NCBI GenBank assembly: GCA_046706365.1
Contig: JBJKPN010000083.1
Coordinates: 7,541 to 71,540 of the forward strand
Direction of reading: 5' to 3'
DNA from: Candidatus Kryptoniota bacterium
GTDB taxonomy: Bacteria > Bacteroidota > Ignavibacteria > Kryptoniales > JAKASW01
DNA length: 64,000 nt
Position numbers and translations under genes: made by a program
Notes under the pieces: generated by a model
What the model was told of the DNA's origin: nothing
The model's database searches: none
The model's input: the letters and a program-made list of their open reading frames with translations, nothing else
In this document: one piece after another, positions 38,563 to 64,000 of the stretch
How positions within the stretch are numbered: the first letter of the stretch is position 1
Layout of the letters: every line of letters begins with the position of its first letter

Positions 38563-38583
38563 ATTCACTAACAGGGCTGAAGC

Positions 38584-39636: not shown

Positions 39637-39715
39637 AATGGATTCAGAAGAGTCAAGAGATATTCATACATTAGAAAACACCAAAGCCAACAACAGGCTT
39701 CGGAAGGAGCGGACC

Positions 39716-46021: not shown

Positions 46022-47206
46022 CTACGAGGACGCCACGACGGAGCCCCGAACGACATTTTCCTGCTTTGCCCGTTCTGCCACCCTTGCCTTAACCGCGGCG
46101 ACGTAAATGGCAAGCGGCCTGTACAATAGGTGTCCCCATTTCCCGAACGGCACCTCCACCACGAGCATCGGGACGACGACCGCCATGTGTACGGTATAGA
46201 TAACATATGTAGCCATCGCCAGGTTATTGACGCGGAAAACATGAAGAAGAATGCCCGTGAGCGCCGCCAGGAACAGCAATATCGGAAAAAGCCAGTCGGA
46301 AAAATGGCTGAACCTGTGCATCCCGGTCCGTTTCTTCATTCTGTCGATGATCATCCATATTGTGGCTATCATCAGTACGCCCGTTGCGTAATACCCTAAG
46401 AAGCTCGTCCAGTGAATGCTGCTGTCGTCCACCTGGAACCAGGGCAGGAATACGACGACAAGCGTGAACATGATGCCGTAGCCGCTGACGAGGAAGAGAT
46501 GGCGCAGCCAGTTCTTCATTTCCGTGCCGCTGCCGCAGTCCTTCCATCGAACTTGTGTCACGCCCTGAACAATCATGTACGGAAGCTGAGTGATGTACAG
46601 CCCCAGGGGTATCCTGTCGCCGCGCGTCATAGCCGCGAACATTCTGGCCGCATTTATTAGCAGCAGGAGACCGAGAGTCGCCGCCATAATTCTGTCGCCC
46701 ACATCAACTATCCCCACCGGCGCAAACCGGTCGAGCATAACGGCAGACAACGGCGCAGGTCCGGAACGGCCGAGCAAACCGAAACCGAAATTCGACGGCA
46801 GGATGAACAGCAATACAATCGCGGCCGCCACCGAGGCGAGGATGCCGATCTCCCAATACACGGATCTGTACATGAGCCGGGATAAGCCTGTCCAGTCGTA
46901 CTTCGAAGTGGCGTATCTTCTCATCGCCATCATTGTTTCGCCCGGCTCCGCTTTGCGCGGGCATCTTTCCGAACAATCCCCGCAATAGAAGCATAGCCAT
47001 GGACCGGGGTCTTCAAGCAGCCGGTCTTTCAATCCCCATTGTGCGAGGAGCATGGGTCTCCGGGGAAACGGGTCTTCCTCGGTCGAGAGGGGGCAGACTG
47101 CCGAACATGTTGCACATTGATAACATTTCTTGAGGTCCCCCGCACCGTACTTCTGAAGCTCCCTTATAAATTCACTGTCGGGAGTGACCAGGCTTCTATC
47201 GTTCAT
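46022..47206 (-). CDS. qmoC: Quinone-interacting membrane-bound oxidoreductase subunit C (HdrC-like 2x[4Fe-4S] domain + heme-b membrane domain)
   Basis: 394 aa. CYQCATCSAVCP and CFYCGDCSERCP ferredoxin motifs, followed by about 6 TM helices with conserved His. Same strand as aprBA and qmoAB. Confidence 0.85.
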   Translation of the reverse strand: MNDRSLVTPDSEFIRELQKYGAGDLKKCYQCATCSAVCPLSTEEDPFPRRPMLLAQWGLKDRLLEDPGPWLCFYCGDCSERCPRKAEPGETMMAMRRYATSKYDWTGLSRLMYRSVYWEIGILASVAAAIVLLFILPSNFGFGLLGRSGPAPLSAVMLDRFAPVGIVDVGDRIMAATLGLLLLINAARMFAAMTRGDRIPLGLYITQLPYMIVQGVTQVRWKDCGSGTEMKNWLRHLFLVSGYGIMFTLVVVFLPWFQVDDSSIHWTSFLGYYATGVLMIATIWMIIDRMKKRTGMHRFSHFSDWLFPILLFLAALTGILLHVFRVNNLAMATYVIYTVHMAVVVPMLVVEVPFGKWGHLLYRPLAIYVAAVKARVAERAKQENVVRGSVVASS

Positions 47207-47219
47207 AGTGTTTGTGCGT

Positions 47220-48044
47220 TCAAGGTTTTACACTTTGCGATGTCAGACGGGTGCCTGTCGGCCTGCCGCCGGATTTCACCCGCATCGTCTTGTCACCGAA
47301 CAGGCAGTACTTGAGCCATGTGATGCCGAACTTGAGCAGCTCTTCGTCATCCGATTTGATTTCGTTCACCAATTCCTCGTCCACTTCGAATCTTTCCAGA
47401 AAGCTGCTCCCAAAGACGAATTCTCTGAACTTATCTATGTTATAGCAGACGGTGTAAAACATTTCGAGCTTTGCCGGAGTAAGCTGCTTCTTCTCCTTGA
47501 AGAAATCGTGCAGCGAAAGTTCTTTGAACAGCTCCCCCATTTCCGAATAATGCTCGACCCCCTGGTCTGCTATCCAATCGGCCACCGTCCAGTCCTTCTG
47601 CTGCAAATATCCCTGACAGACCGACTCCTCGATCATGAAATAAAAATCTCTTTCGCCGCCCTCCCCACTCTCCTTCGGAGAGGCCACACCGAGCGGAAAC
47701 ATCCTGCAGGACCACGGTCGATCCTCATAAATGGAGCAGCCCTCGGACCGGACGAACGGACAGGACTTCCTCTCGTCGTCGTTCATCTTCAGCATGACCA
47801 CGGGGTGGTTCTGGCTCTCGTCGATGGGAAGGAACGTGTATTTGTCGAGGAATTCCTGCGATGAGATCTTCAGTCTGTTCTTCATCCGGATGATGTCATA
47901 CGGGGTCAGGAAGATGTTGACGTCGGTGCAACACATGTTGAAGCAGCTGATCCCTTTGTGGCAGCTGAACTTGAACCCGCTTTCCTTTTTCATGTGCGGA
48001 TAATCTTTCAGCACGGCCTCTTTCAGATTCTCAAGCTCTTTCAT
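47220..48044 (-). CDS. YkgJ/UPF0153-family cysteine-cluster (putative Fe-S or Zn) protein
   Basis: 274 aa. FSCHKGISCFNMCC near the N-terminus and CPFVRSEGCSIYEDRPWSCRMFP, the family hallmark. Lies 13 nt upstream of qmoC. Confidence 0.7.
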   Translation of the reverse strand: MKELENLKEAVLKDYPHMKKESGFKFSCHKGISCFNMCCTDVNIFLTPYDIIRMKNRLKISSQEFLDKYTFLPIDESQNHPVVMLKMNDDERKSCPFVRSEGCSIYEDRPWSCRMFPLGVASPKESGEGGERDFYFMIEESVCQGYLQQKDWTVADWIADQGVEHYSEMGELFKELSLHDFFKEKKQLTPAKLEMFYTVCYNIDKFREFVFGSSFLERFEVDEELVNEIKSDDEELLKFGITWLKYCLFGDKTMRVKSGGRPTGTRLTSQSVKP

Positions 48045-48065
48045 GGCAGGCTCTTTCGTATCAGG

Positions 48066-48455
48066 TTATTCAATAATCGAATCCCTTAGCGCATCTTTGG
48101 ACCAGACCGGAAGCGGACTCGCGCTCCCGCTCACAGGGTCTTCACTGTACCTGTACGAGATGTTCTGGTTGAACTGCTTCTTCATCCAGTCCCATCCCCT
48201 TACGAAATAGGGGCATTCGTCGTTGAAGCATACGTTCAGGAAGTCGGCATCCCATGAAGACCCCTCCGGGCAGCGCCACATCTTCAGCGGCTGATGGCAG
48301 TGGGGACATTCCCCGATTTTCTCTTGTTTCATTTCGTTCGCAATGTCAGAAAGAAGTATTTGTGCCAGATTCGGGAGCGACTCCTGCCGCTCCCGAATCG
48401 GCGAACTTGTTGCTAGTTGACTATCTGATGGATTGGTCTGGAGAACACTTCCCAC
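48066..48455 (-). CDS. Small Cys-rich (zinc-ribbon-like) hypothetical protein downstream of aprA
   Basis: ECPHCHQPLKMWRCPEG ... CFNDECPYFVRGWDWM. The track ORF overlaps the aprA 3' end by 43 nt. The internal Met at 48332 is an alternative start. Confidence 0.55.
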   Translation of the reverse strand: MGSVLQTNPSDSQLATSSPIRERQESLPNLAQILLSDIANEMKQEKIGECPHCHQPLKMWRCPEGSSWDADFLNVCFNDECPYFVRGWDWMKKQFNQNISYRYSEDPVSGSASPLPVWSKDALRDSIIE

Positions 48456-50287
48456 TTGTTATCCTTCGGAATCCATTTCATGTTTACGAATACCTTCCAG
48501 TCCTTCTCGTCCATCGAAGGCTTGTCGGAACGGAAGTAGTATCCGGGCCAGCGGGTCTCTTCCCTGAAAAGAATGGCCCTGACGTGAGCTTCCGCCTGCC
48601 ACATTCTATGGACGTTTTCCCAGCATCTCATCAGTTCGTGAAGGTCCGATGCAGCGAGCTTCTCGGAATCGACCTTCAGATACTCGAGGAGTTCCAGGCC
48701 TTTTTCGAGGAGAGCCTTGCTCGTTTTGAATTGGGAGGAGACGCCGCCTGCGTACTCGTCCATGATCTTCTGCAACCTGAACATGAACATTTTCGGCTTG
48801 ATGTAGTTCGGGTTGATTTCCGGATCCGTCGACGACTTACTGAACTGGCCGTACGTGTCGAGAGGCTTCAGGATCTCAGTCTTCAACGCATCGATTTGTG
48901 CCTGATCGTACTTACGGGATTCGGGGTGATCGATGATATAGTCGATAGCAGCTTTTGCGGCTATCCTGCCTTCGGCATGCGAGCCCGAGGAGAACTTGTG
49001 GCTCGATGCTCCGGACGCGTCGCCGGCGCAGAAGATTCCGCTGATGGTGGACATATTGGCATATCCCCAGAAATAATCCGCAGGGGCAAGATCCTTCGGA
49101 CCGCTGACCCATGCACCGGAGGCGCCGGAATGTGATCCGATGAAGTACGGTTCTGCGGCCGCAATCTCGGAAGGCTTCTGCTCCGGAGCCGTATCTGTAC
49201 CGGCCCACAGGATCGCCTGCGAAATTGTCATGTCAAGGAAGTCTTCCCATGCTTCGGCCTCGAGTTCCTTCAGTTTCTTCTTGGCTGCTTTTTCGTCGCC
49301 GGATTCGGACGCGATCTTGTTGATGGCTTCTTCGGTCCTCATGTAAATCGGGCCTTTTCCGTCCATGACGTCGAGCATCATAAGCCAGTTGCGGAGGTTG
49401 GCGGGGACGGGTTTCACCTTCCCGTACGGTATCCATTTCTCGAGTTCGTCCTTCCGCTCTTCCATGTAGTTGCCGCCCATGCCGTTGGTAGCTCTCGACT
49501 TGAAGAGGAGGAACCAAGCTCCGACCGGGCCGTACGCATCCTTGAACCTTACGGGGATGAAGCGTACTTCCTGGCAGGTCATCTCTGCACCGGCTTTCAG
49601 CGTAAAGTAAGCACTCGACCCGGAATTCCACGGCGGATACCATGCGCGACCGAAGCCTTCTCCGGAAGAACGCGGTTTGAAGACGTGTACCGCTCCGCCC
49701 ATCGCCACCAGGACGGCCTTGGCCTTGAACACGTAGAATTTTTCTTCGCGAACGCTGAACCCGACCGCACCTACGCACACATCGCCGTCCATGAGCGGCC
49801 CGACGATGAATACTCTCTCGTAAATGTTTTCCGCGCCGAGCGCGTTCTTTGCTGCTTCAGCTACTACCACCTTGTATGACTCGCCGTTTATCATCAGCTG
49901 CCACCGGCCTTCATGCACGTAGTTGCCGTTTTCATCCTTCCAGATCGGCAGTCCCCATTTTTCAAATAGATGTACCGTCGAATCGACGTGGCGGGCGATG
50001 TTGTACACAAGGTCCTCGCGAGTAATTCCCATCAGGTCGCTCCGGACGTACTTGACATAATCCTCGGCCGTGTTTTTCCCGTCTTTGATGCCGACGTACT
50101 GGTTGATAGCCGAGAGTCCCATCGCAACCGCACCGCTCCGGTCCACCGCGGCCTTGTCGACAAGCGTGACCTTCAAGCCGTGCTGCTTCGCCCAGTGAGC
50201 GGCTTCGACAGCTGCGCCGCAGGCAGCCATGCCGCCGCCGACTATCAGCAGATCCGTCTCCACTACTTCTGTTTTCAAATTAGCCAT
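48413..50287 (-). CDS. aprA: Adenylylsulfate (APS) reductase alpha subunit
   Basis: 624 aa. TDLLIVGGGMAACGAAVEA FAD motif, fumarate-reductase/AprA-like body. Immediately follows aprB. Confidence 0.92.
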   Translation of the reverse strand: MANLKTEVVETDLLIVGGGMAACGAAVEAAHWAKQHGLKVTLVDKAAVDRSGAVAMGLSAINQYVGIKDGKNTAEDYVKYVRSDLMGITREDLVYNIARHVDSTVHLFEKWGLPIWKDENGNYVHEGRWQLMINGESYKVVVAEAAKNALGAENIYERVFIVGPLMDGDVCVGAVGFSVREEKFYVFKAKAVLVAMGGAVHVFKPRSSGEGFGRAWYPPWNSGSSAYFTLKAGAEMTCQEVRFIPVRFKDAYGPVGAWFLLFKSRATNGMGGNYMEERKDELEKWIPYGKVKPVPANLRNWLMMLDVMDGKGPIYMRTEEAINKIASESGDEKAAKKKLKELEAEAWEDFLDMTISQAILWAGTDTAPEQKPSEIAAAEPYFIGSHSGASGAWVSGPKDLAPADYFWGYANMSTISGIFCAGDASGASSHKFSSGSHAEGRIAAKAAIDYIIDHPESRKYDQAQIDALKTEILKPLDTYGQFSKSSTDPEINPNYIKPKMFMFRLQKIMDEYAGGVSSQFKTSKALLEKGLELLEYLKVDSEKLAASDLHELMRCWENVHRMWQAEAHVRAILFREETRWPGYYFRSDKPSMDEKDWKVFVNMKWIPKDNKWEVFSRPIHQIVN

Positions 50288-50303
50288 GTCTTTTCCAACC
50301 TCC

Positions 50304-50747
50304 CTAATGCTTTATTGTGACTACTTCTGGAAGACCCAAAGACTCTGGCTCCGTGAAAAGCACAGGACTCTTGAGGTCGGTATTGCCGGTATGCCACCCG
50401 CCGTCGGGTGCAGCCTTGCCTTCGTCCGTGGTACGAATGGGGAATTTGAATCTTTTCAGTGTGCCGTTTCGGAATTTTATCGTCCACATGATCGAATCGG
50501 TACTTCTCATCGGCGTAACTGTGGCACCGAGTGGGACGAAATCCGCATACCCGCGTACTTCGATGGCCTGCGTCGGGCAGATCTTGACGCAGTTGTAGCA
50601 TTCCCAGCACATTTCAGGTTCGCGGTTGTATGCCTTCATTATGTCCTTGTTCAAGGCCATCAAGTCATTGGGACAGATATACTGACATGCCGTTTTGTCC
50701 AATGCCTTGCATCCGTCGCATTTATCAGGATTCACATAGCTCGGCAT
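50304..50747 (-). CDS. aprB: Adenylylsulfate (APS) reductase beta subunit
   Basis: 147 aa. MPSYVNPDKCDGCKALDKTACQYICPNDLM and CWECYNCVKICP [4Fe-4S] motifs with an AprB-type C-terminal tail. Confidence 0.92.
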   Translation of the reverse strand: MPSYVNPDKCDGCKALDKTACQYICPNDLMALNKDIMKAYNREPEMCWECYNCVKICPTQAIEVRGYADFVPLGATVTPMRSTDSIMWTIKFRNGTLKRFKFPIRTTDEGKAAPDGGWHTGNTDLKSPVLFTEPESLGLPEVVTIKH

Positions 50748-50902
50748 AGAGTTTCCTCCTTTGCTGTTTCATTTAATTGATAGAAATTCGCGAACTTCAT
50801 TTGTCTATAGAGTTTCAGGCTCCAGGACGACTGCGTTTCGCGTAACATCCTCTGTCGACACGATAACGCACTATGCTTCGCACTGGAACCTCTTCATCTC
50901 TC

Positions 50903-52144
50903 CTATTTCTTCAGTTTGTCTGAGCCCTCGCCCGTTGCAAACTGGTGCATCTTGATCTCGACCTTCTGATCCAGTTTGGAATAATAGTCGCGCAGAATCG
51001 CGAGGACTTCCGGGCGGCTGAACTCTGCGGGCACTTCGGAGCCCTCCGACAACGCCTTGCGAAGAGCCGTACCGCTCAGGAACAACCGGTCTTCCTTCTT
51101 GTGCGGGCACGTCTTCATGGATGCCATGCCGCCGCATTTGAAGCACCAGAAAGTCCAGTCGATTGGCAGCGGCTTAAGCAACAAGGCATCGGATGGGATT
51201 TCATAGAAAATTTTCTGCGCGTCGAACGGGCCGTAGTAGTTGCCGACTCCCGCGTGGTCCCTTCCGACGATGAGATGCGTGCAGCCGAAGTTCTGCCTGA
51301 ACACGCCGTGCAGAAGAGCTTCCCTCGGACCGGCATATCTCATGTCGAGCGGATAGCCGCCGCAAAGTACCGTGTCTTTGACGAAATAGTTTTCGACGAG
51401 TACGTCGATGCATTTCGCCCTGACTTCAGCTGGAATGTCTCCGGGTTTCAGTTTCCCGACAAGCTGGTGAATGTACAGCCCGTCGCTGACTTCAAGAGCG
51501 ATTTTCGCCAGGAACTCATGAGAGCGATGCATCGGATTTCGCAGCTGGAGCGCCGCAATCGTTCTCCATCCCTTCTCCGCAAAAATCTTCCTGCTCTCGG
51601 CCGGTCTCTGATAGAGTCCAGCAAACTCAGTCGGGAAATAGCTCTCGGACAGTACTTTTACCGGGCCGGCGACGTTCCATGGCTTCTGCTGCATTACCAT
51701 CTTCACTCCGGGATGCTCCGGGTCTTCCGTTGTGAATACCTGTTTGCATTCGAACCCCTTATCGATCTGGTACTTCTCAGACACCTTCATCGTACCCATG
51801 AGCTCGTCGGTCTCGTCGCTGTACAGTGCGACTTCCTGTCCGGTTTTCAGGGATTTGGCGTCTTCGTCCGTGACCGACATCGTGATGGGAATCGGCCAGA
51901 ACAGCCCGTTAGTCATTCTCATGTCCGAACAGACCCCCTGCCAGTCATCGTGCCCCATGAAGCCGTTAAGCGGGGTGAAGCCTCCGATCCCGAGCATTAT
52001 CATATCACCCGTCTCTCGACTGGTCATGCAAATCTTCTTTAGCCCCGCTGCCTTTCTGGTTTCTTCTTCCTTTTCTTTGCCGCTCAGGAGAAGGACATTC
52101 AGCTTGTCGCTTCCGTGCGGCCGTATTAAAGTAGATTCCGCCAT
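50903..52144 (-). CDS. sat: Dissimilatory-type ATP sulfurylase (sulfate adenylyltransferase, homo-oligomeric Sat)
   Basis: 413 aa. [11 protein letters not shown] (RNPxHxxH) and VGRDHAGVG motifs. No APS-kinase domain. Confidence 0.92.
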
Positions 52145-52434
52145 AACTTTCCTCTCATTTAAGAATGCTACGTTTCTCGGTTTACGAATTAAGATTTACT
52201 TCTGAACACTGTGTCATAAATCGCATTCACGAAGGCACGCTTTGTTGGCCGGCTCGCCCCGACCAATCTCATTTACAATTGCCGGTAGATGTGGCCCGGC
52301 GAAAATCGCTGTCGTAATACGCATATTTACTAACGCACCTTGCATCAACTCGTGAAAAACATATCGGAAACATCAGGTACAATCAACGAGCACCGGGACT
52401 TCTGTAATCGTTCTGTTGCTCGGCCTCCGCGCAG

Positions 52435-54675
52435 TTACATCCCCTTGTACGGGTTGGGGCCCAGTTCCCTGACCTGCTCGACGAAACTATCGAATATCCC
52501 GGGGAGCTTTGTGTATTCGTCGATGGAAAGTGTCAGAAGTTTCACTCTCTCAGGTTCCAGAACAAGTTGTTTCAATTTCTCCTGCACATTCTCCATTCGC
52601 TTGCTCGCAAGCTCGCTCCCCTTGATGAAATGGCACTGATAATCCACACCGAATTTACAACCGAGCATAAGCACGCCGTCAAACCCCTTGGAGAGCGCGT
52701 CGGCAATCCACACCACGTTCACCGATCCGAGGCACCTCACAGGTATAACTCGGATATTCGGATCGTAATGAAGCCTGTACTTTCCGACCGTGTCCAGCGC
52801 AGGGTAGGCGTCGTTTTCGCACATAAAGGCGAGGATCCTCGGCTTGTCCTCATCCTCGTCGGGTATTTCCACTGCCTTGATCATCGAAGAAATCATCGGC
52901 ACGGAATAGTCCTTGAAGGATATTATTCTCTCCGGGCATGCACCGAGACAGATCCCGCAGCGGCGGCATCTGTTGAGATTAGGCAGCGGAGTACCTTTTT
53001 CGTCCTCGTCAAGCGTCCCGAACGGACACTCCTCCGTACAGCGTTTGCACTGCGTACAGCGCTGCAAAAAGAATTCCGGGTAGGATTCGTCCCCCGATCT
53101 CGGATGGACTGCCTTCCCTACCCTGGCCGAATGTATGAGCTGGATCGCCTTAAGTGTAGCGCCGTAAGCATCATTTCTAGCTGTGGAAAAATCCATGGGC
53201 GCGCGAACACTTCCGGCAGCGTAAATTCCCGTCCGCCTGGTCTCATACGGGAAACAAATGTAATGCGAATCTGGAAAACCGTACCTCAGTGTCGGCAGAT
53301 CGGTTCCCTGTCTGTATGTGAGATTCAATATCTTCGCGCCGACTTCGGCCGATTCGGCAGCTTTCTTGCCGTCGAGGGTCTTCTCAGAAATTGTCGCCGC
53401 TGATCCATCCGATTCGATACTTCCCACCAGCGTGGAGGGGACCATGCCGGTTGCCAGTACGACGAGGTCCGATTGTATGCTGATCCTGTTGCCGAGAAGC
53501 GTGTCATCGATGTCGATTCGGACCGAGCCGTCGGTCGAGGCGGTCAAACCGGCGATTTCACCTTTGGTCAGAAAGACGTTCCTTTCATTTTGCACCCGCT
53601 TATAAAACAGTTCGTGTTCGGCCGGCGTGCGCATATCCCGATAAATTATGTAGACCAGGGCTTCCGGGTATTTCTCCCTTATGTAAAGAGCTTGTTTCAA
53701 AGACATTGAGCAGCAAATTGAAGAGCAATACGGCAGGTGTCTTTCGTCGCGCGAACCGGCGCATAGCACGAACGCGACACTCCTGACGGGTTTGCCGTTC
53801 ATCAAGTCACCGTTGATTCCGTTCTTGAAGCGCTCCTCCAGCTGGAATCCTGTAATCACATTCTCGAATTTTCCGTATCCCAACTCGCCCAGCTTGTTCG
53901 GGTCGTACGGCTTCCACCCGGTCGCCTGAACAATTGCGCCGACTGTCAGCAGTTCGGTTCGCGCTCCCCCGTTGATTCTCAACACGACATGAAAGTCGCC
54001 CGGCTGCCCCGATATTTTTTCAATCGTGCAGGATGTGACCGCGGTAATCCTATCGTTCGACTCCACCTCGGAAATCATTCGTTCTATGCCGGAGAATTGC
54101 GGTTCCAGGAAAGGAGGCTCAATGGGAGCGATGCGGTGAAATTTTGCCATCTGCCCGCCGAGATTCTTTTCCTTTTCCGTAAGTACAACCGTGAATCCGG
54201 CTTTTGCAGCGGCAAGGGCTGACGTCAGTCCCGTTGTCCCGCCTCCAACCACGAGAATAGTCTCGTTCACTTCACTCCGCAACGGCTCAGGGAGTTCACT
54301 GTTTCTTACCTTTGCAACTCCCATTCGGAGATAGTCTTCGGCAAGCATCTGCGTGTCGTCGTCATTCGGCTTGTGCGTCCATGCGACATTCTCGCGGAGA
54401 TTGACACGCTCCACCATGACGCCTGAATCAAAACGAAATACATCCGACAGGAATCTTTGCGAACAGGCACCTATGACGACGCGGTTCAGTTTTTCGCTCT
54501 TTATTTCCTCTCTGATAGTCGCGACGCTTTCATCGCTGCATAACCACCCGTCAACCTTACAGACGGGAACTTTACTCTCGCCGGTGGCGAGCTTCGCGAG
54601 CCCGTCGCAGTTCAGCGCCCCGCCGATTCCGCAGCCCGAACAGAGATAAACGCCTACTTTGGTATCTATAGCCAT
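52435..54675 (-). CDS. qmoB: Quinone-interacting membrane-bound oxidoreductase subunit B (HdrA-like flavoprotein with ferredoxin and MvhD-like domains)
   Basis: 746 aa. VVGGGTTGLTSALAAAKAG FAD motif, CTQCKRCTEECP and CRRCGICLGACP clusters, and a C-terminal ILAFMCENDAYPALD...VIPVRCLGSVN MvhD-like domain. Confidence 0.88.
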   Translation of the reverse strand: MAIDTKVGVYLCSGCGIGGALNCDGLAKLATGESKVPVCKVDGWLCSDESVATIREEIKSEKLNRVVIGACSQRFLSDVFRFDSGVMVERVNLRENVAWTHKPNDDDTQMLAEDYLRMGVAKVRNSELPEPLRSEVNETILVVGGGTTGLTSALAAAKAGFTVVLTEKEKNLGGQMAKFHRIAPIEPPFLEPQFSGIERMISEVESNDRITAVTSCTIEKISGQPGDFHVVLRINGGARTELLTVGAIVQATGWKPYDPNKLGELGYGKFENVITGFQLEERFKNGINGDLMNGKPVRSVAFVLCAGSRDERHLPYCSSICCSMSLKQALYIREKYPEALVYIIYRDMRTPAEHELFYKRVQNERNVFLTKGEIAGLTASTDGSVRIDIDDTLLGNRISIQSDLVVLATGMVPSTLVGSIESDGSAATISEKTLDGKKAAESAEVGAKILNLTYRQGTDLPTLRYGFPDSHYICFPYETRRTGIYAAGSVRAPMDFSTARNDAYGATLKAIQLIHSARVGKAVHPRSGDESYPEFFLQRCTQCKRCTEECPFGTLDEDEKGTPLPNLNRCRRCGICLGACPERIISFKDYSVPMISSMIKAVEIPDEDEDKPRILAFMCENDAYPALDTVGKYRLHYDPNIRVIPVRCLGSVNVVWIADALSKGFDGVLMLGCKFGVDYQCHFIKGSELASKRMENVQEKLKQLVLEPERVKLLTLSIDEYTKLPGIFDSFVEQVRELGPNPYKGM

Positions 54676-54679
54676 GATG

Positions 54680-55936: not shown

Positions 55937-55956
55937 TTTGATATCCCATATGTCTC

Positions 55957-56787: not shown

Positions 56788-56839
56788 ACGACCTCCCGGC
56801 TGTAAAGCCCATTGATTGCACGACACTTCATCCCGGTAA

Positions 56840-58537
56840 TCACAATCGCGTCTCCGTGCACTCCAACGATTTTTTTACTTTCGAGTACATTAGGTTTCCA
56901 CCTCCGAGGTAGGAGACGTTAGTGTGTCCGGAATTTGAAAAAATCCGCGCTGCTTCATACGCTCTCGGGCCCTTCTCGCAGACAAAGAGGACAGGCTCGT
57001 CTGCCGCGTAATCATCGGCCCTCGAGCGAAGCTCGGACAACGGTATGCGGACCGAGTTCTCGGCAAATGGAAACGCCGCCGTTTCAGCCGATTCCCTCAC
57101 GTCTATCATTGTTCCCCTGAACGAGGCTGCGTCGAGCGGGCTGACGCTGCGAATGCCGTCGATTTCCTGATCAATTGCCATGAATCCCAGATAATTCAGC
57201 GGCGAGACAGGCGATGAATGCGCGGGTGTGTAACAGTGCTCAATGTCGCGCAGGTCCGCTATCGTTCCACCGTGCGAAAGCAGCACGGCAAAAACATCTG
57301 CATATCGCGTTACCTCTCCATCGCCGATTAACTGGAGACCGAGCAACCTGAACCCGGGTTTTTGATAGACGAGCTTCCCGACAAGCAGCTTCTTCTCCGG
57401 GTGGTAATCCGGCCTGTCCGACCAGCAACCGACAATGCTTCCGGTTTCATAGCCAAGCCTGATCGCTTTCTTCTCAGTAAGGCCGACGGCACAGACAATG
57501 TTGTCGAACAATTTCAGCGAAACCGCCCCCGCCGCACCCTCGAAAGACGCATGCTTCCCGGCAATTGAATCGGCGGCAACTCTGCCCATTCTGTTGGAAA
57601 GAGAACCTAATGAGAAAAAGTCGGGAATGCCGGTAACCAGGTTTTCTATTTCCACGCAGTCGCCGGCCGCCCAGATGTTGCTGACGCTGGTCCTCATCTG
57701 CTCGTCAACCAGGATGCCGCCGTGCTTCCCCGTCTCTATGTTCGATTTCCGGGCCAGCTCCGAATTCGGCTTTACTCCGAGACAGTAGAATACATAGTCA
57801 CTCACCAGCCGCTCGCCGCTGTCGAGAGAGATGACCGGGGCTCCTTTTTCGTCCGTGTCGATCCTTTCAACGGACGTCGAAAGCAGGATCCGGACTTTTT
57901 GCGATTCAATAGAACTCTCGCAATAGTTTGAAATTTCCGGATCGAGGAAACCCGGGAGGATCGAACTCTCCTTCTCGACCAGGACGGTTTCAATCCCCCA
58001 TAGCGACGACAGTGCCTCGACCATCTCGCATCCCACGAACCCGCCTCCAATTATGACGGCTTTTCGGATCGCGCCTTTCTCCGCCAGCTTGCGGAACTTC
58101 TGGGCGTCTCTCGGGGTGTGAAAGGGCGAGACAGGTGCAGAAGCCGGGTAAGGAAATTGCGGCAATACCGTTTCCGCACCTGTCGCGATAATCAAAATAT
58201 CATAGGGCACGAAGATAGATTCGCTGCCGTCAAGATCCCTGCACCTTACCTGATTGCTTTGCGCAAGAATTTCTTCGACCACGGTTTTGGTAAGAACTTT
58301 GACACCTTTGACCTGACGGAAGTACTCTTCATCTCTTGGTACGCCGTACGAGGTCGCCGCTAGATCCGAGATCGTATCGATTTCTCCCGCCGCGTACTGT
58401 GGAAGGCCGCAGCTGCTGAACGATATAAACGGGCCCCTCTCGATGATTGTCACGCGGAAATCGAGAGAGAGCCTGCAGAGTCTTGCTGCTGCCCTGCATC
58501 CTGCGGCCATGCCCCCGATAATTACCACGTTAGGCAC
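56840..58537 (-). CDS. CoA-disulfide-reductase-type FAD/NAD(P)H disulfide oxidoreductase fused to a C-terminal rhodanese domain (persulfide/polysulfide reductase-like)
   Basis: 565 aa. VVIIGGMAAGCRAA, the redox Cys in SFSSCGLPQY, a second Rossmann motif VIIGGGFVGCE, and the C-terminal rhodanese active-site loop FVCEKGPRA (CxxGxR). Confidence 0.8.
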   Translation of the reverse strand: MPNVVIIGGMAAGCRAAARLCRLSLDFRVTIIERGPFISFSSCGLPQYAAGEIDTISDLAATSYGVPRDEEYFRQVKGVKVLTKTVVEEILAQSNQVRCRDLDGSESIFVPYDILIIATGAETVLPQFPYPASAPVSPFHTPRDAQKFRKLAEKGAIRKAVIIGGGFVGCEMVEALSSLWGIETVLVEKESSILPGFLDPEISNYCESSIESQKVRILLSTSVERIDTDEKGAPVISLDSGERLVSDYVFYCLGVKPNSELARKSNIETGKHGGILVDEQMRTSVSNIWAAGDCVEIENLVTGIPDFFSLGSLSNRMGRVAADSIAGKHASFEGAAGAVSLKLFDNIVCAVGLTEKKAIRLGYETGSIVGCWSDRPDYHPEKKLLVGKLVYQKPGFRLLGLQLIGDGEVTRYADVFAVLLSHGGTIADLRDIEHCYTPAHSSPVSPLNYLGFMAIDQEIDGIRSVSPLDAASFRGTMIDVRESAETAAFPFAENSVRIPLSELRSRADDYAADEPVLFVCEKGPRAYEAARIFSNSGHTNVSYLGGGNLMYSKVKKSLECTETRL

Positions 58538-58589
58538 TTCAAGCTCCTCGGTCCGGAATCTCTCGATCCCGATGGCGCATATACGACAT

Positions 58590-59747
58590 CTATGCTTCGG
58601 CTCCCTTCCTGATCGACAATACCATCTTGTAGAAAAGCGTGATGAACATGAACCCGATGGCCCAAACGCCGAGTGCTATCAGCGACTCGGGGACTGTCGG
58701 CCAGTACTGAATCACTTTACCGAAGGGGGAAGGTATAAAACCCGTAATTATCAATCCGAGACCCTTGTCAATCCAGATCGATATGAAGACGGTAGCACAG
58801 GCTATGAAGAATGTTCTGTTGTTATTCCGTGTGCGGGGAACGATAAGGAGAGCCAGCGACAAGAGGGCCAGAACAGCCGACGTCCACATCCAGGGTGCCA
58901 GCCGTGCAGATCCGTCGAAACCGAAATACAAGTACTGCAGGTGTGAAACGTCGTCCGGGATACCGCTGTAGAAGGTCGTAAAAAATTCCATGAGGATGAA
59001 AAACACATTCACGCACATCGCATAAGTGATAATCACGCCGAGTTTCCTGAACGCTGCGTCGCCCGCGTCAAAACCGGTCAGCCTCTTCATCACGACGCAA
59101 AGGATCACGAGAAGTGCGGGCCCGGCCGCAAAGGCGGATGCGAGGAACCTCGGGGCCATGATGGCGGTCAACCAGAACGGCCGTCCGGCCAATCCCGCGA
59201 GCAGGAACGCCGTCACGGTGTGGATGCTGACAGCCCAAGGAATTGACAGGATGATTATTGGCCGGATCCATTTGGGCGGGCGGATCGATTTACGTTCCGC
59301 GTCCAGCGTCACGCGTGTTATGATTACATTGAGGATCAGGTAACCGCTGAGCGCAATTACGTCCCAGAACAACAACGAATGGGGCGTAGGATAGATGAGG
59401 ATATTCAGAATTCTAAACGGCTGCCCGAGGTCGATAAACACGAAAAGCATACACATAATCACGGAAGAGATGGCGAGAAATTCACCGAGTATCGTGACCT
59501 TCGCGAAAGCCTTGTAATCGTGCAGGTAATACGGCAAAACAACCATGACGGCCGATGCCGCCACCCCAACCATGAAGGTAAACTGGGCAATATACAATCC
59601 CCAGCTGACATTCCTGCTCATGCCGGTCAGCCCCAGTCCGTAGTCCAATTGTCTGAGATAAAAATAAAAGCCAACCGCTATTACGAGGGCCAGAAAAAGG
59701 AGCCAGCTCCAGTAATTCCTGCTTCCTCTGAATGCATGTTCTATCAT
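58590..59747 (-). CDS. dsrP: DsrP, NrfD/PsrC-type integral membrane quinone-interacting subunit
   Basis: 385 aa and about 10 TM. GLGLTGMSRNVSWGLYIAQFTF is NrfD-like. Follows dsrO. Confidence 0.88.
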   Translation of the reverse strand: MIEHAFRGSRNYWSWLLFLALVIAVGFYFYLRQLDYGLGLTGMSRNVSWGLYIAQFTFMVGVAASAVMVVLPYYLHDYKAFAKVTILGEFLAISSVIMCMLFVFIDLGQPFRILNILIYPTPHSLLFWDVIALSGYLILNVIITRVTLDAERKSIRPPKWIRPIIILSIPWAVSIHTVTAFLLAGLAGRPFWLTAIMAPRFLASAFAAGPALLVILCVVMKRLTGFDAGDAAFRKLGVIITYAMCVNVFFILMEFFTTFYSGIPDDVSHLQYLYFGFDGSARLAPWMWTSAVLALLSLALLIVPRTRNNNRTFFIACATVFISIWIDKGLGLIITGFIPSPFGKVIQYWPTVPESLIALGVWAIGFMFITLFYKMVLSIRKGAEA

Positions 59748-59756
59748 TTTCGCGCC

Positions 59757-60560
59757 TTAAACGAGATAATAAATTTCCGGATTCGTGCCCAGCTCCGGCT
59801 TTCGCCTGATCGAGAAATTGTCTTTCAGAAGCTGCCTCACTTCCGAAGACGGATCGTTGAGATTGCCAAACACCATCGCTTTCTCAGGGCACACGTCGAC
59901 GCATATCGGGAGGAGTCCCTGGGCTATTCTTTCATCGCACCAGGTGCATTTCTCTACGACTCCCTTCATCCGCGTCGGGTAATCCGGGTTGATGTCTTTG
60001 ATGAACGGACGAGGGTCCCTCCAGTTGAAGCTTCTCGATCCGAACGGACAGGCGGCCATACAGTACCTGCAGCCGATGCAGCGGTGCCAGTCGATCATCA
60101 CTATGCCGTCGTCGCGCTTGAAAGTCGCCTGTGTTGGGCAGACCTCGACGCACGGCGGGTTGTCGCAGTTGTTGCAGAAAACCGGCACCTTCTTGTTCCT
60201 GAACTCGTCCTTCATGTAGTAGTTTTCCTGTTCGAGGAACGCATTCTCGTAAGGCTCTTTCCATATCCACTTTATCGCGTCTTTTGATTCTCCGAAGTCC
60301 GGTATGTTATGCGCCTTGTTGCAGGCATCGATACATTTCGTGCAGCCCTGATCCGAGACACACTTGCGCAAATCCACGACCATTGCCAGGCGCACCTTCT
60401 GTACGCTCTTCGCCCCGGCCAATCGCTTGCCTGCCCCAACGGCCTTCGACAGGATCTTCGCAGATGTGCTTCCGGCGTGAACGCTCGCGTATCTTTCCGC
60501 CGTTACACCCAGCGCGGTCAGGCCGGCCAGCTTCAGGAGCTTTCTTCGACTTATATCCAT
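59757..60560 (-). CDS. dsrO: DsrO, periplasmic Tat-exported 4x[4Fe-4S] ferredoxin subunit
   Basis: 267 aa. Twin-arginine signal MDISRRKLLKLAG. CIGCRYCMAACP and related clusters. Confidence 0.88.
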   Translation of the reverse strand: MDISRRKLLKLAGLTALGVTAERYASVHAGSTSAKILSKAVGAGKRLAGAKSVQKVRLAMVVDLRKCVSDQGCTKCIDACNKAHNIPDFGESKDAIKWIWKEPYENAFLEQENYYMKDEFRNKKVPVFCNNCDNPPCVEVCPTQATFKRDDGIVMIDWHRCIGCRYCMAACPFGSRSFNWRDPRPFIKDINPDYPTRMKGVVEKCTWCDERIAQGLLPICVDVCPEKAMVFGNLNDPSSEVRQLLKDNFSIRRKPELGTNPEIYYLV

Positions 60561-60955
60561 CAGTTACTCTTCACGTTTGGAGGTTTGTTATGACAATCCC
60601 AGCAATAAGGGTTTACGCCGACATAATTGTGACACTGATCGCAAAACTGAGACGTGTTCGGATGACAGCCCAGACATGTCTTTGTGAACCTCATCTCAAA
60701 CTCTTTTCCGTTGCTCGAAGTATAGTATGTGTCACCGTCCCTGACGACCTCCGTTCTCCACTCGTTCAGCAAAGCCATGTGATCGCGTCTCATGAACTCC
60801 AGACCGGCCACGCACTCCTTCTGGCCTTCCTTTGTCGGGAGAACGAGATCAGGTCTTTCGAGCGCTTTCCCGTTCGACATGTCATACCAGAACGGGGACG
60901 TGAACAGTCCGGCAAAGATTATCAGTCCGACAATTATTTTCCCGCTATCGTACAT
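60560..60955 (-). CDS. dsrJ: DsrJ, membrane-anchored periplasmic triheme cytochrome c
   Basis: 131 aa. N-terminal anchor and three heme motifs CLGCH, CDQCH and CWDCH. Confidence 0.9.
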   Translation of the reverse strand: MYDSGKIIVGLIIFAGLFTSPFWYDMSNGKALERPDLVLPTKEGQKECVAGLEFMRRDHMALLNEWRTEVVRDGDTYYTSSNGKEFEMRFTKTCLGCHPNTSQFCDQCHNYVGVNPYCWDCHNKPPNVKSN

Positions 60956-61050
60956 TCCTGTTTCCTTTAGTGCGTCAGTCCATTCTCGGTTGCAAATGCT
61001 TCATTTGCATGGCCGGTTCCTTGACCTCTCCGTGTTCCGGCCCGTACTCT

Positions 61051-61464
61051 TCATCGCAGCCTGAGCTTCCATTTTGATTTATCGATCACGGAAGAAAGCT
61101 CCTTCTCCAGTTCATCGGCCTGCCTTATCAAGCAGGAAGCCTGATCGGCGTTCGGCAGCTCGTTAGTCTCATTTATTAGTCTGAGCCAGTACCTGCTTTC
61201 CCTTACTTTTTTCCGGCTTATTTTTGCCCGCACGACAAAGTCCTTATTGCTGAGTGCCTCACTGGCCTCTATGTAGTTTGCGCCTGCACAGCCGGACGCG
61301 TTCACCAGCTGCTTCTCGTCTTCGACATTCGCCAGAGTCCTCGGAAGCGTTCTTGCAAACAGCCTGACGGCCTTTGAAAACTGGTAAGCCCGCTCCTCCA
61401 GACCGGCGTCGTGTCCGTCGTCCACGGAATAAGGTTTACCGCTGTCCATATTCGATTCCATCAT
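61051..61464 (-). CDS. Four-helix-bundle protein (23S rRNA intervening-sequence protein family) inserted between dsrK and dsrJ
   Basis: 137 aa. AYQFSKAVRLFARTLP ... GANYIEASEALSNKDFVVRAKISRKKVRESRYWLRLI matches the family pattern. Its ATG directly abuts the dsrK stop (TGAATGATG). Confidence 0.75.
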   Translation of the reverse strand: MMESNMDSGKPYSVDDGHDAGLEERAYQFSKAVRLFARTLPRTLANVEDEKQLVNASGCAGANYIEASEALSNKDFVVRAKISRKKVRESRYWLRLINETNELPNADQASCLIRQADELEKELSSVIDKSKWKLRLR

Positions 61465-63111
61465 TCAACGATTCTGATTCTGCGCGACCTCTTGATCCGC
61501 CTTTTCGTCATTCGCAGCGAGCGGCTCACCACGAAGGTCGGTATCTCTTTGTTTTTCGCCCTTCATGATCAGCGCATTTCCGACAAGCTCGTGGATTCCG
61601 CCGACATCGACTCCCCCGACCCAGTATTCCATCAGCGGCGGGAGCGTCGCCTTGTCGATTGCGCAAATACAACCGAGGAAGTTGACGCCGTGTTTTTCCT
61701 TCACGAACTTCACCGCATTCGCTCTCGGCAGGCCGCCTCTCATCCTCATCTCCAGGTTTTCATCGGTGCCGAGCCCGGCGCCACTTCCGCAACAGAAGGT
61801 CTGTTCCTTGATCGTATTCTCAGGCATCTCGTAAAAATGGTTGCAGGCATTTCGGATTATAAATCTCGGCTCTTCAATGAGGCCGAGAGCGCGCGCAGGG
61901 TTGCATGAGTCGTGGAAAGTGATTTTCCGGTGATCGTTGCGACTCTTATCCAGCTTAATCTTGTCGTTCTTTATGAGGTCGGCTGTAAACTCGCATATAT
62001 GGACCATTCTCGTGGCTCTTGCGTTCTCGAATTTCGTGCCTGTGACGGGAGAAACGGGTTCATCGAGAAAATCGGCTGGCCCGTTTAGCGTGTCCATGTA
62101 CTGGTGCACGACTCTCCACATATGACCGCACTCTCCGCCCAGGATCCATTTGACCCCGAGCCGCTTGGCTTCAGCGTACATCTTCGCGTTCAGGCTTTTC
62201 ATGAGGTCATGCGAGATGAACGAGCCAAAGTTGCCGCCCTCAGACGCGTAAGTGCTCCAGGTGTAGTCGAGACCGATCTCGTGAAAGAGCGCAAGGTAGC
62301 CGAGTAGCGTGTAGTAATGGGGAGTTCCGAAATAGTCGGCAGACGGCGTAATGAAAAGGATCTCCGCACCTTTCCTGTTGATCGGGGCTTCCACTTTTAC
62401 GCCTGTGATGGACTCGAGCTCATCCACCGCGAAGTCGATGCTGTCCTTGAATCCGTGGGGCTGGATGCCGAGGTGATTACCCGTCCTGAAACTGTTGGCA
62501 ACAGGCGTTACGATCCAGTCGATATTCACGCCGACAAGACTGAGCAGCTCTCTGACCAGTATCGTAATTTCTGCGGTGTCGATTCCGTATGGACAAAACA
62601 CTGAACAGCGCCTGCATTGCGTGCACTGGTAGAAGTAATAGAACCACTCCTTCAGCACGTCGAATGTCAGCTCGCGCGCTCCGGCAAACTTTCCGAGTAT
62701 CTTTCCCGCGACGGTGAAATCGTTTCTGTAGACCGATCTCAACAATTCGGCACGCATTACCGGCATGTTTTTAGGATCCCCGGAGCCTATGAAGAAATGA
62801 CACTTATCCGCGCAAGCACCGCACCTGACGCAAATATCCATGTATATCTGCAGCGACCGGAAGCGATGTAATCGATCCCGGAGCCCTTCCAGGATTATCT
62901 CCTTCCAGTTTTCCGGCAGCTTCCAGTCGGGATCCGTCGGTTGCCATTTCCGCGGGTTCGGCAGTCCAAGGTACTCGATGTTTTTCGGGTTACCGCTGTA
63001 GTTGAAGGTCCCCTCTTTGAAATCCACCGGCTGTTCCATCCAGCCGTTCGGAGGAAGGTTGTACTTGATTTTACCGGCTAATTCTTCCGGTTTTAATTTC
63101 GATCCGGACAT
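61465..63111 (-). CDS. dsrK: DsrK, cytoplasmic HdrD-like Fe-S subunit with CCG domains
   Basis: 548 aa. CVRCGACADKCH, CTQCRRCSVFCP, and CCG-type motifs FHDSCNPAR and QTFCCGSGAG. Confidence 0.9.
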   Translation of the reverse strand: MSGSKLKPEELAGKIKYNLPPNGWMEQPVDFKEGTFNYSGNPKNIEYLGLPNPRKWQPTDPDWKLPENWKEIILEGLRDRLHRFRSLQIYMDICVRCGACADKCHFFIGSGDPKNMPVMRAELLRSVYRNDFTVAGKILGKFAGARELTFDVLKEWFYYFYQCTQCRRCSVFCPYGIDTAEITILVRELLSLVGVNIDWIVTPVANSFRTGNHLGIQPHGFKDSIDFAVDELESITGVKVEAPINRKGAEILFITPSADYFGTPHYYTLLGYLALFHEIGLDYTWSTYASEGGNFGSFISHDLMKSLNAKMYAEAKRLGVKWILGGECGHMWRVVHQYMDTLNGPADFLDEPVSPVTGTKFENARATRMVHICEFTADLIKNDKIKLDKSRNDHRKITFHDSCNPARALGLIEEPRFIIRNACNHFYEMPENTIKEQTFCCGSGAGLGTDENLEMRMRGGLPRANAVKFVKEKHGVNFLGCICAIDKATLPPLMEYWVGGVDVGGIHELVGNALIMKGEKQRDTDLRGEPLAANDEKADQEVAQNQNR

Positions 63112-63113
63112 TT

Positions 63114-64000
63114 CTATTCCTTATCCAAAGGTAATCCTGCTTCTTTCATCTTCTCCCGGAATTCGTCCTCATACTCCGGATAGGTGTGAACCCGGACCGG
63201 ACGATTCCACGGGTTAACGTGTCTCTTCATGCGACTGTTGTTCGCCAGGTTCCTCGTCGGCGACAGGAATATCCCGGGCATGTGCAGCAGCTTGCTGAAC
63301 GGGAAATACGCGAGAAGCGCACACACGAGGAATAGGTGCGTGTAGAAAATTACCCCGATGCCCTGTGGGACCGCGGGATGAAAGGTGAACAGGCCGATGA
63401 TGAGCTCCTTTACGTTGACGAGGTCCACCCTGATGAAATAACGCATCAGGATTCCGGTTATCGCGATGCTGATTATGAGAAACAACGGGAAATAATCTGA
63501 CGCGAGCGAGATGTACCTGAGCTTGGGCACGACAATTCGACGGAGGATCAGGTATGTCAGGGCGGCCACTATAAGTACATCCGTGATATAAACTCCCGGG
63601 AGCCCCACCTGGAAGAACCCGTCGATGCTTTCGATCGCCGGCACAAAAGAGGGCACGGGCTGCATGAAAAGCCTGAAATGCCGCAGCACGATGATGAGCA
63701 TGGACCAGTGGAAAACTATCGCTCCGAGCCAAAGGTACTTGCTGCTTCCGTAAACAAGCCTGGGCCCGTCCTTCATTTCCATCTTCGTGTTGCGGAACAG
63801 CGAACGGAAAAACAACACCTCGAGGGCCATCCTCCCGATAACACCCCACGTTCCGCTTGGACTCTCCAGCTTGCTGCTCTTTATCCAGGAAAGAGATTTT
63901 TGCTGTCCCGCTACCGTCGGGATGTGAAACGGCACAGGCGACTTTGACCATTTAACGACGCGGTAAATGATACCGACAAGGAAGATTGTCATTGCCGAGT
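63114..64000 (-). CDS. dsrM: DsrM, NarI-like diheme-b membrane subunit; 5' end probably beyond the window
   Basis: 292 aa counted from the Met at 63992, but the frame stays open to base 64000 and the first TM helix looks truncated. It has multi-TM NarI-like topology with conserved His and ends ...YPEYEDEFREKMKEAGLP. Lies 2 nt before dsrK. Confidence 0.82.
   Translation of the reverse strand, partial: SAMTIFLVGIIYRVVKWSKSPVPFHIPTVAGQQKSLSWIKSSKLESPSGTWGVIGRMALEVLFFRSLFRNTKMEMKDGPRLVYGSSKYLWLGAIVFHWSMLIIVLRHFRLFMQPVPSFVPAIESIDGFFQVGLPGVYITDVLIVAALTYLILRRIVVPKLRYISLASDYFPLFLIISIAITGILMRYFIRVDLVNVKELIIGLFTFHPAVPQGIGVIFYTHLFLVCALLAYFPFSKLLHMPGIFLSPTRNLANNSRMKRHVNPWNRPVRVHTYPEYEDEFREKMKEAGLPLDKE

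Follow-up and report, generated by a model that had tools for sequence, protein, structure and literature searches.

We analysed a 64,000-nucleotide stretch of contig JBJKPN010000083.1 from Candidatus Kryptoniota bacterium (assembly GCA_046706365.1); the whole of this stretch is called the window below. Maps of open reading frames (ORFs) together with Pfam and NCBIfam scans revealed 16 consecutive genes in bases 46022-64000, every one of them on the minus strand, including dsrMKJOP, qmo genes, sat and aprBA. We consider it very likely that this region is the downstream two-thirds of a co-directional array of about 26-27 kb with the genes for the entire pathway of dissimilatory sulfate reduction in an uncultured member of the Bacteroidota of the Ignavibacteria/Kryptonia type. 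The evidence comes from the window itself and from the corresponding loci of related genomes.

Genes of the cluster

In the order from dsrM to qmoC, the genes are the following:

63114-64000, minus strand: dsrM, membrane cytochrome b subunit of DsrMKJOP (NF038037, 509.6 bits, cut-off 300, model positions 31-320)
61465-63111, minus strand: dsrK, catalytic Fe-S (CCG-domain) subunit (NF045796, 736.9 bits, cut-off 400; CCG at residue 440)
61051-61464, minus strand: four-helix-bundle gene of the 23S rRNA intervening protein (IVP) family (PF05635, 42.5 bits; TIGR02436, 58.7 bits)
60560-60955, minus strand: dsrJ, periplasmic triheme cytochrome c (NF038038, 165.5 bits, cut-off 100; three CxxCH motifs at residues 94, 105 and 118)
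59757-60560, minus strand: dsrO, periplasmic Fe-S subunit with a twin-arginine translocation signal (NF045797, 290 bits, cut-off 200; leader SRRKLLKLAG)
58590-59747, minus strand: dsrP, NrfD-type membrane quinone-interacting subunit (NF045798, 465 bits, cut-off 350; PF03916)
56840-58537, minus strand: Npsr-like flavoprotein, CoA-disulfide-reductase fold with a C-terminal rhodanese (Pyr_redox_2 and Rhodanese domains)
55957-56787, minus strand: PF13189 (cytidylate-kinase-like family) protein (108.9 bits)
54680-55936, minus strand: qmoA, HdrA-like flavoprotein of 418 amino acids (HdrA family, 368 bits)
52435-54675, minus strand: qmoB, HdrA-like with a C-terminal FlpD/MvhD-like domain (PF02662 FlpD, 143.9 bits; HdrA family, 424 bits)
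50903-52144, minus strand: sat, dissimilatory-type ATP sulfurylase (NF003166, 513 bits, cut-off 387; PUA_2 and ATP-sulfurylase domains)
50304-50747, minus strand: aprB (TIGR02060, 206.4 bits, cut-off 135.65; PF12139)
48413-50287, minus strand: aprA (TIGR02061, 906.8 bits, cut-off 641.75)
48066-48332, minus strand: zinc-ribbon protein of 88 amino acids (weak Ogr_Delta match, 28.1 bits)
47220-48044, minus strand: YkgJ-type cysteine-cluster protein (PF03692, 41.1 bits)
46022-47206, minus strand: qmoC-like gene, HdrC-like di-cluster and six-helix membrane domain (NF038018, 238.9 bits, below the cut-off of 300)

The DsrMKJOP complex is complete, with all five NCBIfam equivalogs above their cut-offs. 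The dsrM gene is cut by the window end, so that its first 30-36 codons or so lie beyond base 64000 (in the related locus L001, DsrM has 330 amino acids). QmoA and QmoB are both HdrA-like and QmoB carries the FlpD domain; dedicated QmoA and QmoB models gave no match in the Pfam and NCBIfam scans. The QmoC-like protein aligns with positions 1-358 of the 360 positions of NF038018 and has two CxxCxxCxxxC motifs, six hydrophobic segments and seven histidines. Five of the 16 genes go unnamed in the title of the initial annotation: the four-helix-bundle/23S-IVP gene, the Npsr-like CoA-disulfide reductase (CoADR)-rhodanese, the PF13189 gene, the zinc-ribbon gene and the YkgJ-type gene. The starts of qmoA and of the PF13189 gene were taken from independent gene calls on the identical Logan contig L082, and the zinc-ribbon start was set at an internal methionine, in agreement with gene calls of 88-95 amino acids in loci L083 and L084.

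The initial annotation of this DNA had described a compact single-strand cluster of dsrMKJOP, qmo, sat and aprBA, which the ORF listing and the domain scans confirm. It had also counted sixteen minus-strand genes from dsrM to a porin. The strand is correct, but the sixteenth gene is qmoC, and the count is thus either one too low or leaves the porin out; the porin is the seventeenth gene and lies outside 46022-64000:

44844-45983, minus strand: Porin_O_P-type anion porin (PF07396, 89.3 bits), 38 bp downstream of qmoC

We rejected this porin as a member of the cluster, as it is absent after qmoC in L083 and L084.

Host lineage

AprA of the window is 94-95% identical to proteins of metagenome-assembled genomes (MAGs) named Bacteroidetes bacterium and 86-89% identical to those of Ignavibacteriaceae and Kryptoniota. 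More generally, the nearest relatives of AprA, DsrK, Sat and the YkgJ-type protein come from MAGs labelled Bacteroidetes, Ignavibacteriaceae, Ignavibacteriales or Kryptoniota. To collect related loci, we used a DsrK-guided scan with one genome per GTDB species. It gave 13 loci (L001-L012 and L017) with DsrK identities of 82-91%, all labelled Bacteroidetes, Ignavibacteria, Ignavibacteriaceae or Ignavibacteriales, several of them on contigs of 360-540 kb. Below these, at 69-77% identity, come Zixibacteria, Acidobacteria, Moorella and Desulfobacterota.

The proposal that the organism belongs to the Fibrobacterota-Chlorobiota-Bacteroidota (FCB) type holds and does not depend on the cluster alone: a gene unrelated to sulfur and two type IX secretion system (T9SS) tails agree with it. 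The former encodes rhamnulose-1-phosphate aldolase/dehydrogenase (5579-7699), approximately 40 kb away, and its named matches all come from Bacteroidota. The latter belong to two further proteins of the window, for which the initial annotation had correctly read the C-terminal NYPNPFNP...VYFYR pattern; both end in NYPNPFNP...GVYFYR and score above the cut-off of 27 bits for the PF18962 Por_Secre_tail family:

20083-22416, plus strand: arylsulfotransferase-domain protein with T9SS tail (PF05935, 118 bits; PF18962, 34.2 bits, residues 698-774 of 777)
22719-29102, minus strand: multidomain surface protein of 2127 amino acids with T9SS tail (PF18962, 38.9 bits, residues 2049-2123 of 2127)

With the first of these, a genome that respires sulfate also encodes a secreted enzyme of sulfate esters.

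The array in related genomes

What lies upstream of dsrM can be seen in the relatives. In a tblastn map, 11 of the 13 closest species-level genomes carry dsrA, dsrB, a dsrD-like ORF, dsrN, dsrL, dsrC and dsrT, in this order, in front of dsrM; the remaining two loci (L003, L015) are cut short on this side. In L001, whose DsrK is 91% identical to that of the window, dsrA (TIGR02064, 586.5 bits) and dsrB (TIGR02066, 518.3 bits) are followed by an ORF of 82 amino acids and dsrN; its dsrL encodes a GltD-like Fe-S flavoprotein of 561 amino acids and its dsrT an RsbRD_N protein of 200 amino acids. We found dsrC in 12 of the 13 loci, and that of L001 (TIGR03342, 117.4 bits) has both C-terminal cysteines. 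All 13 loci share the order dsrC-dsrT-dsrMKJOP-npsr-(PF13189)-qmoAB(-sat). The AprA-centred loci L083 and L084 go on with sat-aprBA, the zinc-ribbon gene, the YkgJ-type gene and qmoC, after which the array ends. Since L004 and L083 overlap on one contig of 536 kb, the whole array can be measured there: from the start of dsrA to the stop of qmoC it spans 26.6 kb.

By analogy with these genomes, the contig of the window probably continues in the same way. The stretch from dsrA to dsrT would require about 7.4 kb upstream of window base 64000, and this would fit into the 9.8 kb of the 73,775-bp contig that lie outside the window. It is therefore plausible that dsrAB and dsrC stand just beyond base 64000, as the initial annotation had supposed. 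No JGI metagenome contig contained an exact 60-mer taken from the end of the window, and exact-protein look-ups with DsrK, DsrJ and DsrO returned either nothing or two short Logan contigs (L081, L082) that come from the same sample; the population is also represented in SRR31309758. In the Zixibacteria and Acidobacteria loci, qmoB or qmoABC stands directly upstream of dsrAB and the Npsr-like gene follows dsrP.

The order of the array has been kept in 13 species-level genomes despite the fact that their proteins have diverged to 47-91% identity. This bears on the possibility that the array arrived recently as a mobile genomic island and is not a stable, vertically inherited part of the chromosome. 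DsrA and DsrK do cluster with Zixibacteria, an Elusimicrobia MAG and Acidobacteria and not with Chlorobia, which implies that the module was transferred laterally in ancient times; L001, L002, L011 and L017 have an IS1-type zinc-finger protein upstream of dsrA, and small selfish-looking genes have been inserted (the four-helix bundle in the window, a GxxExxY-family gene in L001). On the other hand, several of the 13 loci, with their conserved order, lie deep inside contigs of 360-540 kb, the position of the IS1-like gene is itself conserved and fits a domesticated regulator and not an active element, and we found no integrase, tRNA or repeat border in the window, where the G+C content stays at 0.49-0.55 with no step at the cluster border. 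We regard a recent mobile origin as extremely improbable. In the mobile sense, then, the word "island" in the initial annotation is not justified: nothing marks the region as mobile, and the G+C content is flat across the window.

The IS1-type gene deserves a closer description. It encodes a protein of 371-381 amino acids with a zinc-binding domain of the IS1/IS1595 type at its N-terminus and is found immediately upstream of dsrA, in the same direction, in at least four species (L001, 106-1236; L002, 175-1290; L011, 394-1539; L017, 397-1542). It looks like a domesticated transposase-like regulator and not like an active insertion sequence.

Direction of the pathway

The initial annotation had left the direction of the pathway, reductive or oxidative, open. 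It is less open than that. All direction markers were tested on the upstream genes of the relatives, and there DsrA, the DsrD-like ORF, dsrT and DsrL-2 point to a reductive-type system.

In the relatives, DsrA shares 59-89% identity with reductive-type sequences from Zixibacteria, Acidobacteria, Moorella, Desulfobacterales and Syntrophaceae, and 46% with the oxidative rDsrA from the SUP05 phage Lau218, which is the sole oxidative reference compared; a search for an oxidative DsrA reference among plasmids found none. In a neighbour-joining tree the Ignavibacteria-type DsrA stands with Zixibacteria and allies, with a long branch to rDsrA. Against the DsrA of A. fulgidus and D. vulgaris the relatives' protein scores 551 and 523 bits, respectively.

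All 11 Ignavibacteria-type loci that reach as far as dsrB have the 82-amino-acid ORF after it. When its family was compared with canonical DsrD sequences (a set of which seven members match PF08679) by profile-profile alignment with hhalign, the probability of homology was 96% (E 2e-9).

The third marker is DsrL. Its YRR motif, which follows the second Rossmann strand at position 299, occurs in every locus examined, namely L001 and 33 more (561 amino acids). This motif defines the NADP(H)-specific DsrL-2, which lacks the insertion of DsrL-1A and is the only DsrL type found with reductive DsrAB (PMC7596348). According to the criterion of Diao et al. (PMC10591310), DsrL-2 beside reductive DsrAB and DsrD indicates a reductive metabolism. 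The initial annotation had listed dsrL among the oxidative markers, which does not hold here. It had also proposed to look in the flanking sequence for dsrAB, dsrC and dsrD as opposed to dsrEFH: the loci of the relatives hold dsrAB, dsrC and the DsrD-like ORF, and no dsrEFH. Taken together, DsrA, the DsrD-like ORF, dsrT, DsrL-2 and the missing dsrEFH in the cluster favour sulfate or sulfite reduction.

The same gene set could also run in reverse and oxidise sulfide or sulfur to sulfate, as in the green sulfur bacteria (Chlorobia), which belong to the same phylum and run sat-aprBA-qmoABC oxidatively (PMC6338057). The relatives do have DsrL, long taken as a marker of sulfur oxidisers, the cluster contains an embedded sulfur-handling enzyme (Npsr/rhodanese), and reductive-type DsrAB works oxidatively in cable bacteria (PMC13293266). 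However, the DsrA identities given above are on the reductive side, the DsrL is of the YRR/NADP type that accompanies reductive DsrAB (PMC7596348, PMC10591310), a DsrD-like gene and dsrT are present in the relatives, and the cluster and the window contain neither dsrEFH nor tusA nor yeeE. Furthermore, the in situ transcription of a comparable Kapabacteria cluster pointed to reduction under anoxia, as relayed in PMC10591310, which cites Thiel 2019. We consider this reverse use to be highly improbable.

A second alternative is an organism that is not a dedicated sulfate reducer: it might disproportionate sulfite, thiosulfate or sulfur, be bidirectional, or switch direction with conditions. Reductive-type gene sets with dsrD are indistinguishable from those of disproportionators (PMC6018805), and the conserved NAD(P)H-linked DsrL-2 and Npsr-like persulfide/polysulfide reductase would suit sulfur of intermediate oxidation state. 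There is no positive marker of disproportionation; the window lacks the YTD / DsrEFH type II cluster, and the full Sat-Apr-Qmo set argues for sulfate as substrate or product. This alternative seems very improbable to us.

Several observations weigh against the reading of the array as a complete sulfate-reduction pathway. The genes dsrAB, dsrC, dsrD and dsrL have been seen in the relatives only, as the DNA of the window ends in dsrM. The Pfam DsrD model gives no match to the DsrD-like ORF, nor does a phmmer search of the PDB reach the DsrD structure 1UCR. The QmoC-like protein scores below the NCBIfam cut-off (238.9 bits against 300), with the expected architecture of two [4Fe-4S] clusters and six helices retained. 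The search for dsrEFH, which found none, covered only the window and the 21-kb loci of the relatives, and in the cluster there is neither a pyrophosphatase nor a recognised sulfate transporter. Finally, gene content alone does not fix the direction, since reductive-type sets can run oxidatively or in disproportionation, for example in cable bacteria and Desulfurivibrio (PMC13293266, PMC6018805).

With these points considered, we still infer from the gene sequences that the pathway probably runs reductively in vivo. In the proposed scheme, which keeps to the established pathway, Sat would turn sulfate and ATP into adenosine 5'-phosphosulfate (APS), and AprBA would reduce APS to sulfite and AMP with electrons from menaquinol delivered via QmoABC. 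DsrAB, presumably encoded just upstream of the window, would then reduce sulfite and bring it onto DsrC as the DsrC trisulfide, and the NADP-type DsrL-2 seen in the relatives may pass NADPH electrons to DsrAB. DsrMKJOP, with DsrK as its catalytic subunit, would reduce the trisulfide and release sulfide, coupled to the quinone pool.

Gene spacing and regulation

The intergenic gaps in the cluster are at most 95 bp, apart from one of 290 bp in front of sat and one of 155 bp in front of aprB. This spacing fits one or a few co-directional transcription units. No chance statistic is needed here, because a same-strand run of this kind is the usual look of an operon array.

One RNA element stands out:

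48364-48406, minus strand: stable RNA hairpin directly 3' of the aprA stop codon (folding free energy -33.6 kcal/mol, z = -4.9)

None of 200 shuffled sequences folds equally well. The position of the hairpin after aprA, though not its sequence, is kept in L083 (11876-12004) and L084 (5321-5417). Together, the long gaps before sat and aprB and the hairpin suggest a sub-operonic control of abundant enzymes, in which sat-aprBA may be a more strongly expressed sub-unit, bounded by a long leader on one side and the hairpin on the other. The hairpin could be a transcript-stabilising or attenuating element that separates sat-aprBA from the downstream genes. Scans for sigma-70 promoters and intrinsic terminators gave nothing above the shuffled expectation, a regex search for the Bacteroidetes -7 motif TAnnTTTG found none in the intergenic gaps, and neither the Rfam nor the tRNA scan gave any match in the whole window.

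Accessory genes

The best PDB match of the Npsr-like protein is 6PFZ, the Npsr of A. fulgidus (E 1.4e-96, full length); 3ICR, 8A56 and 3NTA were also matched. Both catalytic cysteine contexts are kept (SFSSCGLPQY and FVCEKGPRA), and the TIGR03385 CoADR model gives 299.7 bits, below its cut-off of 578.8. All 13 Ignavibacteria-type loci have the gene next after dsrP; it also stands there in most Zixibacteria loci with enough sequence past dsrP, as well as in some Acidobacteria and some Syntrophaceae loci. The role of this NADH-dependent persulfide reductase in the sulfate reducer A. fulgidus has been called unexplained (PMC7969121). Judging from sequence, the enzyme encoded here may use NAD(P)H to clear away by-products such as persulfide or polysulfide.

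The PF13189 protein is conserved in 12 of the 13 close relatives. We examined the idea that it is an AMP-recycling kinase and dropped it: the N-terminus (MPIITISRGSLSAT) contains no GK[ST] motif, and with it the Walker-A lysine is absent. Its relatives in the PDB are all uncharacterised.

For the YkgJ-type protein we collected 4974 homologues, and eight cysteines are invariant in 30 sequences. Its gene follows aprA in L028, L032, L054, L083 and L084, and its association with APS reductase crosses phyla. In two Desulfobacterota MAGs (among L032, L054, L042 and L028) homologues are duplicated between aprBA and qmoAB, and in one Acidobacteriota MAG a YkgJ-type and a zinc-ribbon gene follow aprBA. 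The protein has no sequence match in the PDB, a Foldseek search of the PDB with an AlphaFold2 model (pLDDT 72, pTM 0.71) yielded nothing at E < 1, and a literature search turned up no paper that links YkgJ to sulfate reduction. By position, the zinc-ribbon and YkgJ-type pair corresponds to the "conserved hypothetical genes", two in number, which Thiel et al. reported between aprA and qmoC. That the Npsr-like, PF13189, zinc-ribbon and YkgJ-type proteins are real, unrecognised components of sulfate respiration, kept across Bacteroidota, Zixibacteria and Acidobacteria, is an idea that we hold to be unlikely. Under this idea, the zinc-ribbon and YkgJ-type pair in particular could supply the redox or adaptor link that is missing between QmoABC and AprBA.

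The four-helix-bundle gene between dsrK and dsrJ is peculiar to this genome: it is also found in Logan contig L081 from the same sample, and is absent between dsrK and dsrJ in L001-L012 and L017. In L001, a GxxExxY-family gene (14319-14696) is found between dsrP and the Npsr-like gene instead of the four-helix bundle. It seems that small genes of both families enter one operon at differing places.

Comparison with known systems

The initial annotation implied more novelty than there is, as both the lineage and the arrangement are already in the literature (PMC6018805, PMC6338057, PMC10504309), and many public genomes contain the arrangement. Five Ignavibacteria genomes were among the new dsrD-bearing sulfate or sulfite reducers of Anantharaman et al. 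2018, and the new lineages often had the whole dsr pathway in one region (PMC6018805). Consecutive dsrABDNCTMKJOP clusters were described by Neukirchen et al. 2023 (PMC10504309). The text of the 2023 census names only Chlorobia and Kapabacteria within the Bacteroidota and does not treat the Ignavibacteria/Kryptonia-type class.

The closest described systems are those of the Kapabacteria "Candidatus Thermonerobacter thiotrophicus" and of "Ignavibacteria bacterium GWB2_35_12" (Thiel et al. 2019, PMC6338057), from the same phylum-level group. They share with the window and its relatives the unit sat-aprBA-hyp-hyp-qmoC (hyp, hypothetical gene), in which qmoC is split from qmoAB (in the window, qmoAB stands upstream of sat), and a dsrT in front of dsrMKJO. 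In contrast to the Kapabacteria, the window and the 13 relatives have one co-directional array, dsrABDNLCT-MKJOP-npsr-PF13189-qmoAB-sat-aprBA-hyp-hyp-qmoC. In the Kapabacteria, sat-aprBA-hyp-hyp-qmoC precedes dsrAB, while qmoAB, dsrTMKJO and dsrP are located elsewhere and additional dsrM-2 and dsrK-2 genes follow dsrC. Moreover, DsrK of a Kapaibacterium MAG (L021) is 75% identical, compared with 82-91% within the Ignavibacteria-type group.

With the single-region clusters of Ignavibacteria, Zixibacteria and Acidobacteria (PMC6018805, PMC10504309, PMC10591310) the array shares the consecutive dsrABDN(L)CTMKJOP order, a dsrT that adjoins dsrM, and a dsrD (in the relatives, the dsrD-like ORF) together with DsrL-2. 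It differs from these published dsr clusters in that apr, sat and qmo are appended downstream of dsrP, which brings the whole pathway into one array. Chlorobia, from the same phylum, have the same protein families, including DsrL and dsrT, and a sat-aprBA linked to qmo; they differ by an oxidative-type DsrAB, dsrEFH, the lack of dsrD, a contiguous qmoABC and a metabolism of sulfur oxidation.

Desulfovibrio and Archaeoglobus use the same enzymes, and the Npsr-like protein is nearest to Npsr of A. fulgidus, but they have no DsrL and no zinc-ribbon/YkgJ pair after aprA. Their sat, aprBA-qmoABC, dsrAB(D), dsrC and dsrMKJOP loci lie scattered over the genome (see also the legend of Fig. 5 in PMC6018805).

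What differs here is the permutation, with a co-directional fusion of the dsr block, the Npsr-like gene, the PF13189 gene, qmoAB, sat-aprBA, two hypothetical genes and qmoC, in a group distinct from the Kapabacteria.

Other features of the window

A second block of sulfur- and siroheme-related genes is located on the plus strand at 31455-40039:

31455-32357, plus strand: TauE/SafE permease
32745-33422, plus strand: SirC-like NAD_binding_7 protein
34015-35331, plus strand: uroporphyrinogen methyltransferase/HemD fusion
35328-39636, plus strand: four tandem TauE/SafE paralogs, 61-72% identical to each other

The tandem TauE/SafE paralogs, next to siroheme synthesis genes, are candidate sulfate or sulfite transporters. 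In L083, a glutamyl-tRNA reductase gene (hemA, 2119-3342) is inserted between the Npsr-like and PF13189 genes, and here tetrapyrrole synthesis is again linked with the cluster.

Convergent to the end of the cluster, in the window (42149-44800, plus strand) and in L084 (12928-15320), there is a gene for a protein that in the window has 883 amino acids, with an ATP/AMP-binding domain of the pyruvate phosphate dikinase (PPDK) type, a mobile phosphohistidine domain and no recognised phosphoenolpyruvate/pyruvate domain. Alongside it, L084 has PF13189+BON proteins, TauE and DUF1634.

At the other end of the window (2-2184, minus strand) there are cysD and a cut cysN, judged from C-terminal sequence only, adjoined by rhamnose catabolism genes (2762-9795). 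If the assignment as cysDN is correct, an assimilatory GTP-dependent sulfate adenylyltransferase would exist alongside the dissimilatory Sat.

Conclusions

The array belongs to a widespread uncultured branch of the Bacteroidota that carries a complete sulfate-respiration pathway in compact form, with at least 13 species-level genomes, many of them from soils and freshwater surveys. The picture of this branch that has been drawn since 2018-2019 remains unchanged. The value of the array lies in a template of the full gene order, in the reductive-type direction markers of the relatives and in a shortlist of conserved accessory genes that may have a role in APS or sulfite reduction. These can be used in the annotation of metagenomes and in assigning environmental dsrAB and aprA sequences to organisms. 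The remaining interest is in the four conserved accessory genes, which encode the Npsr-like, PF13189, zinc-ribbon and YkgJ-type proteins.

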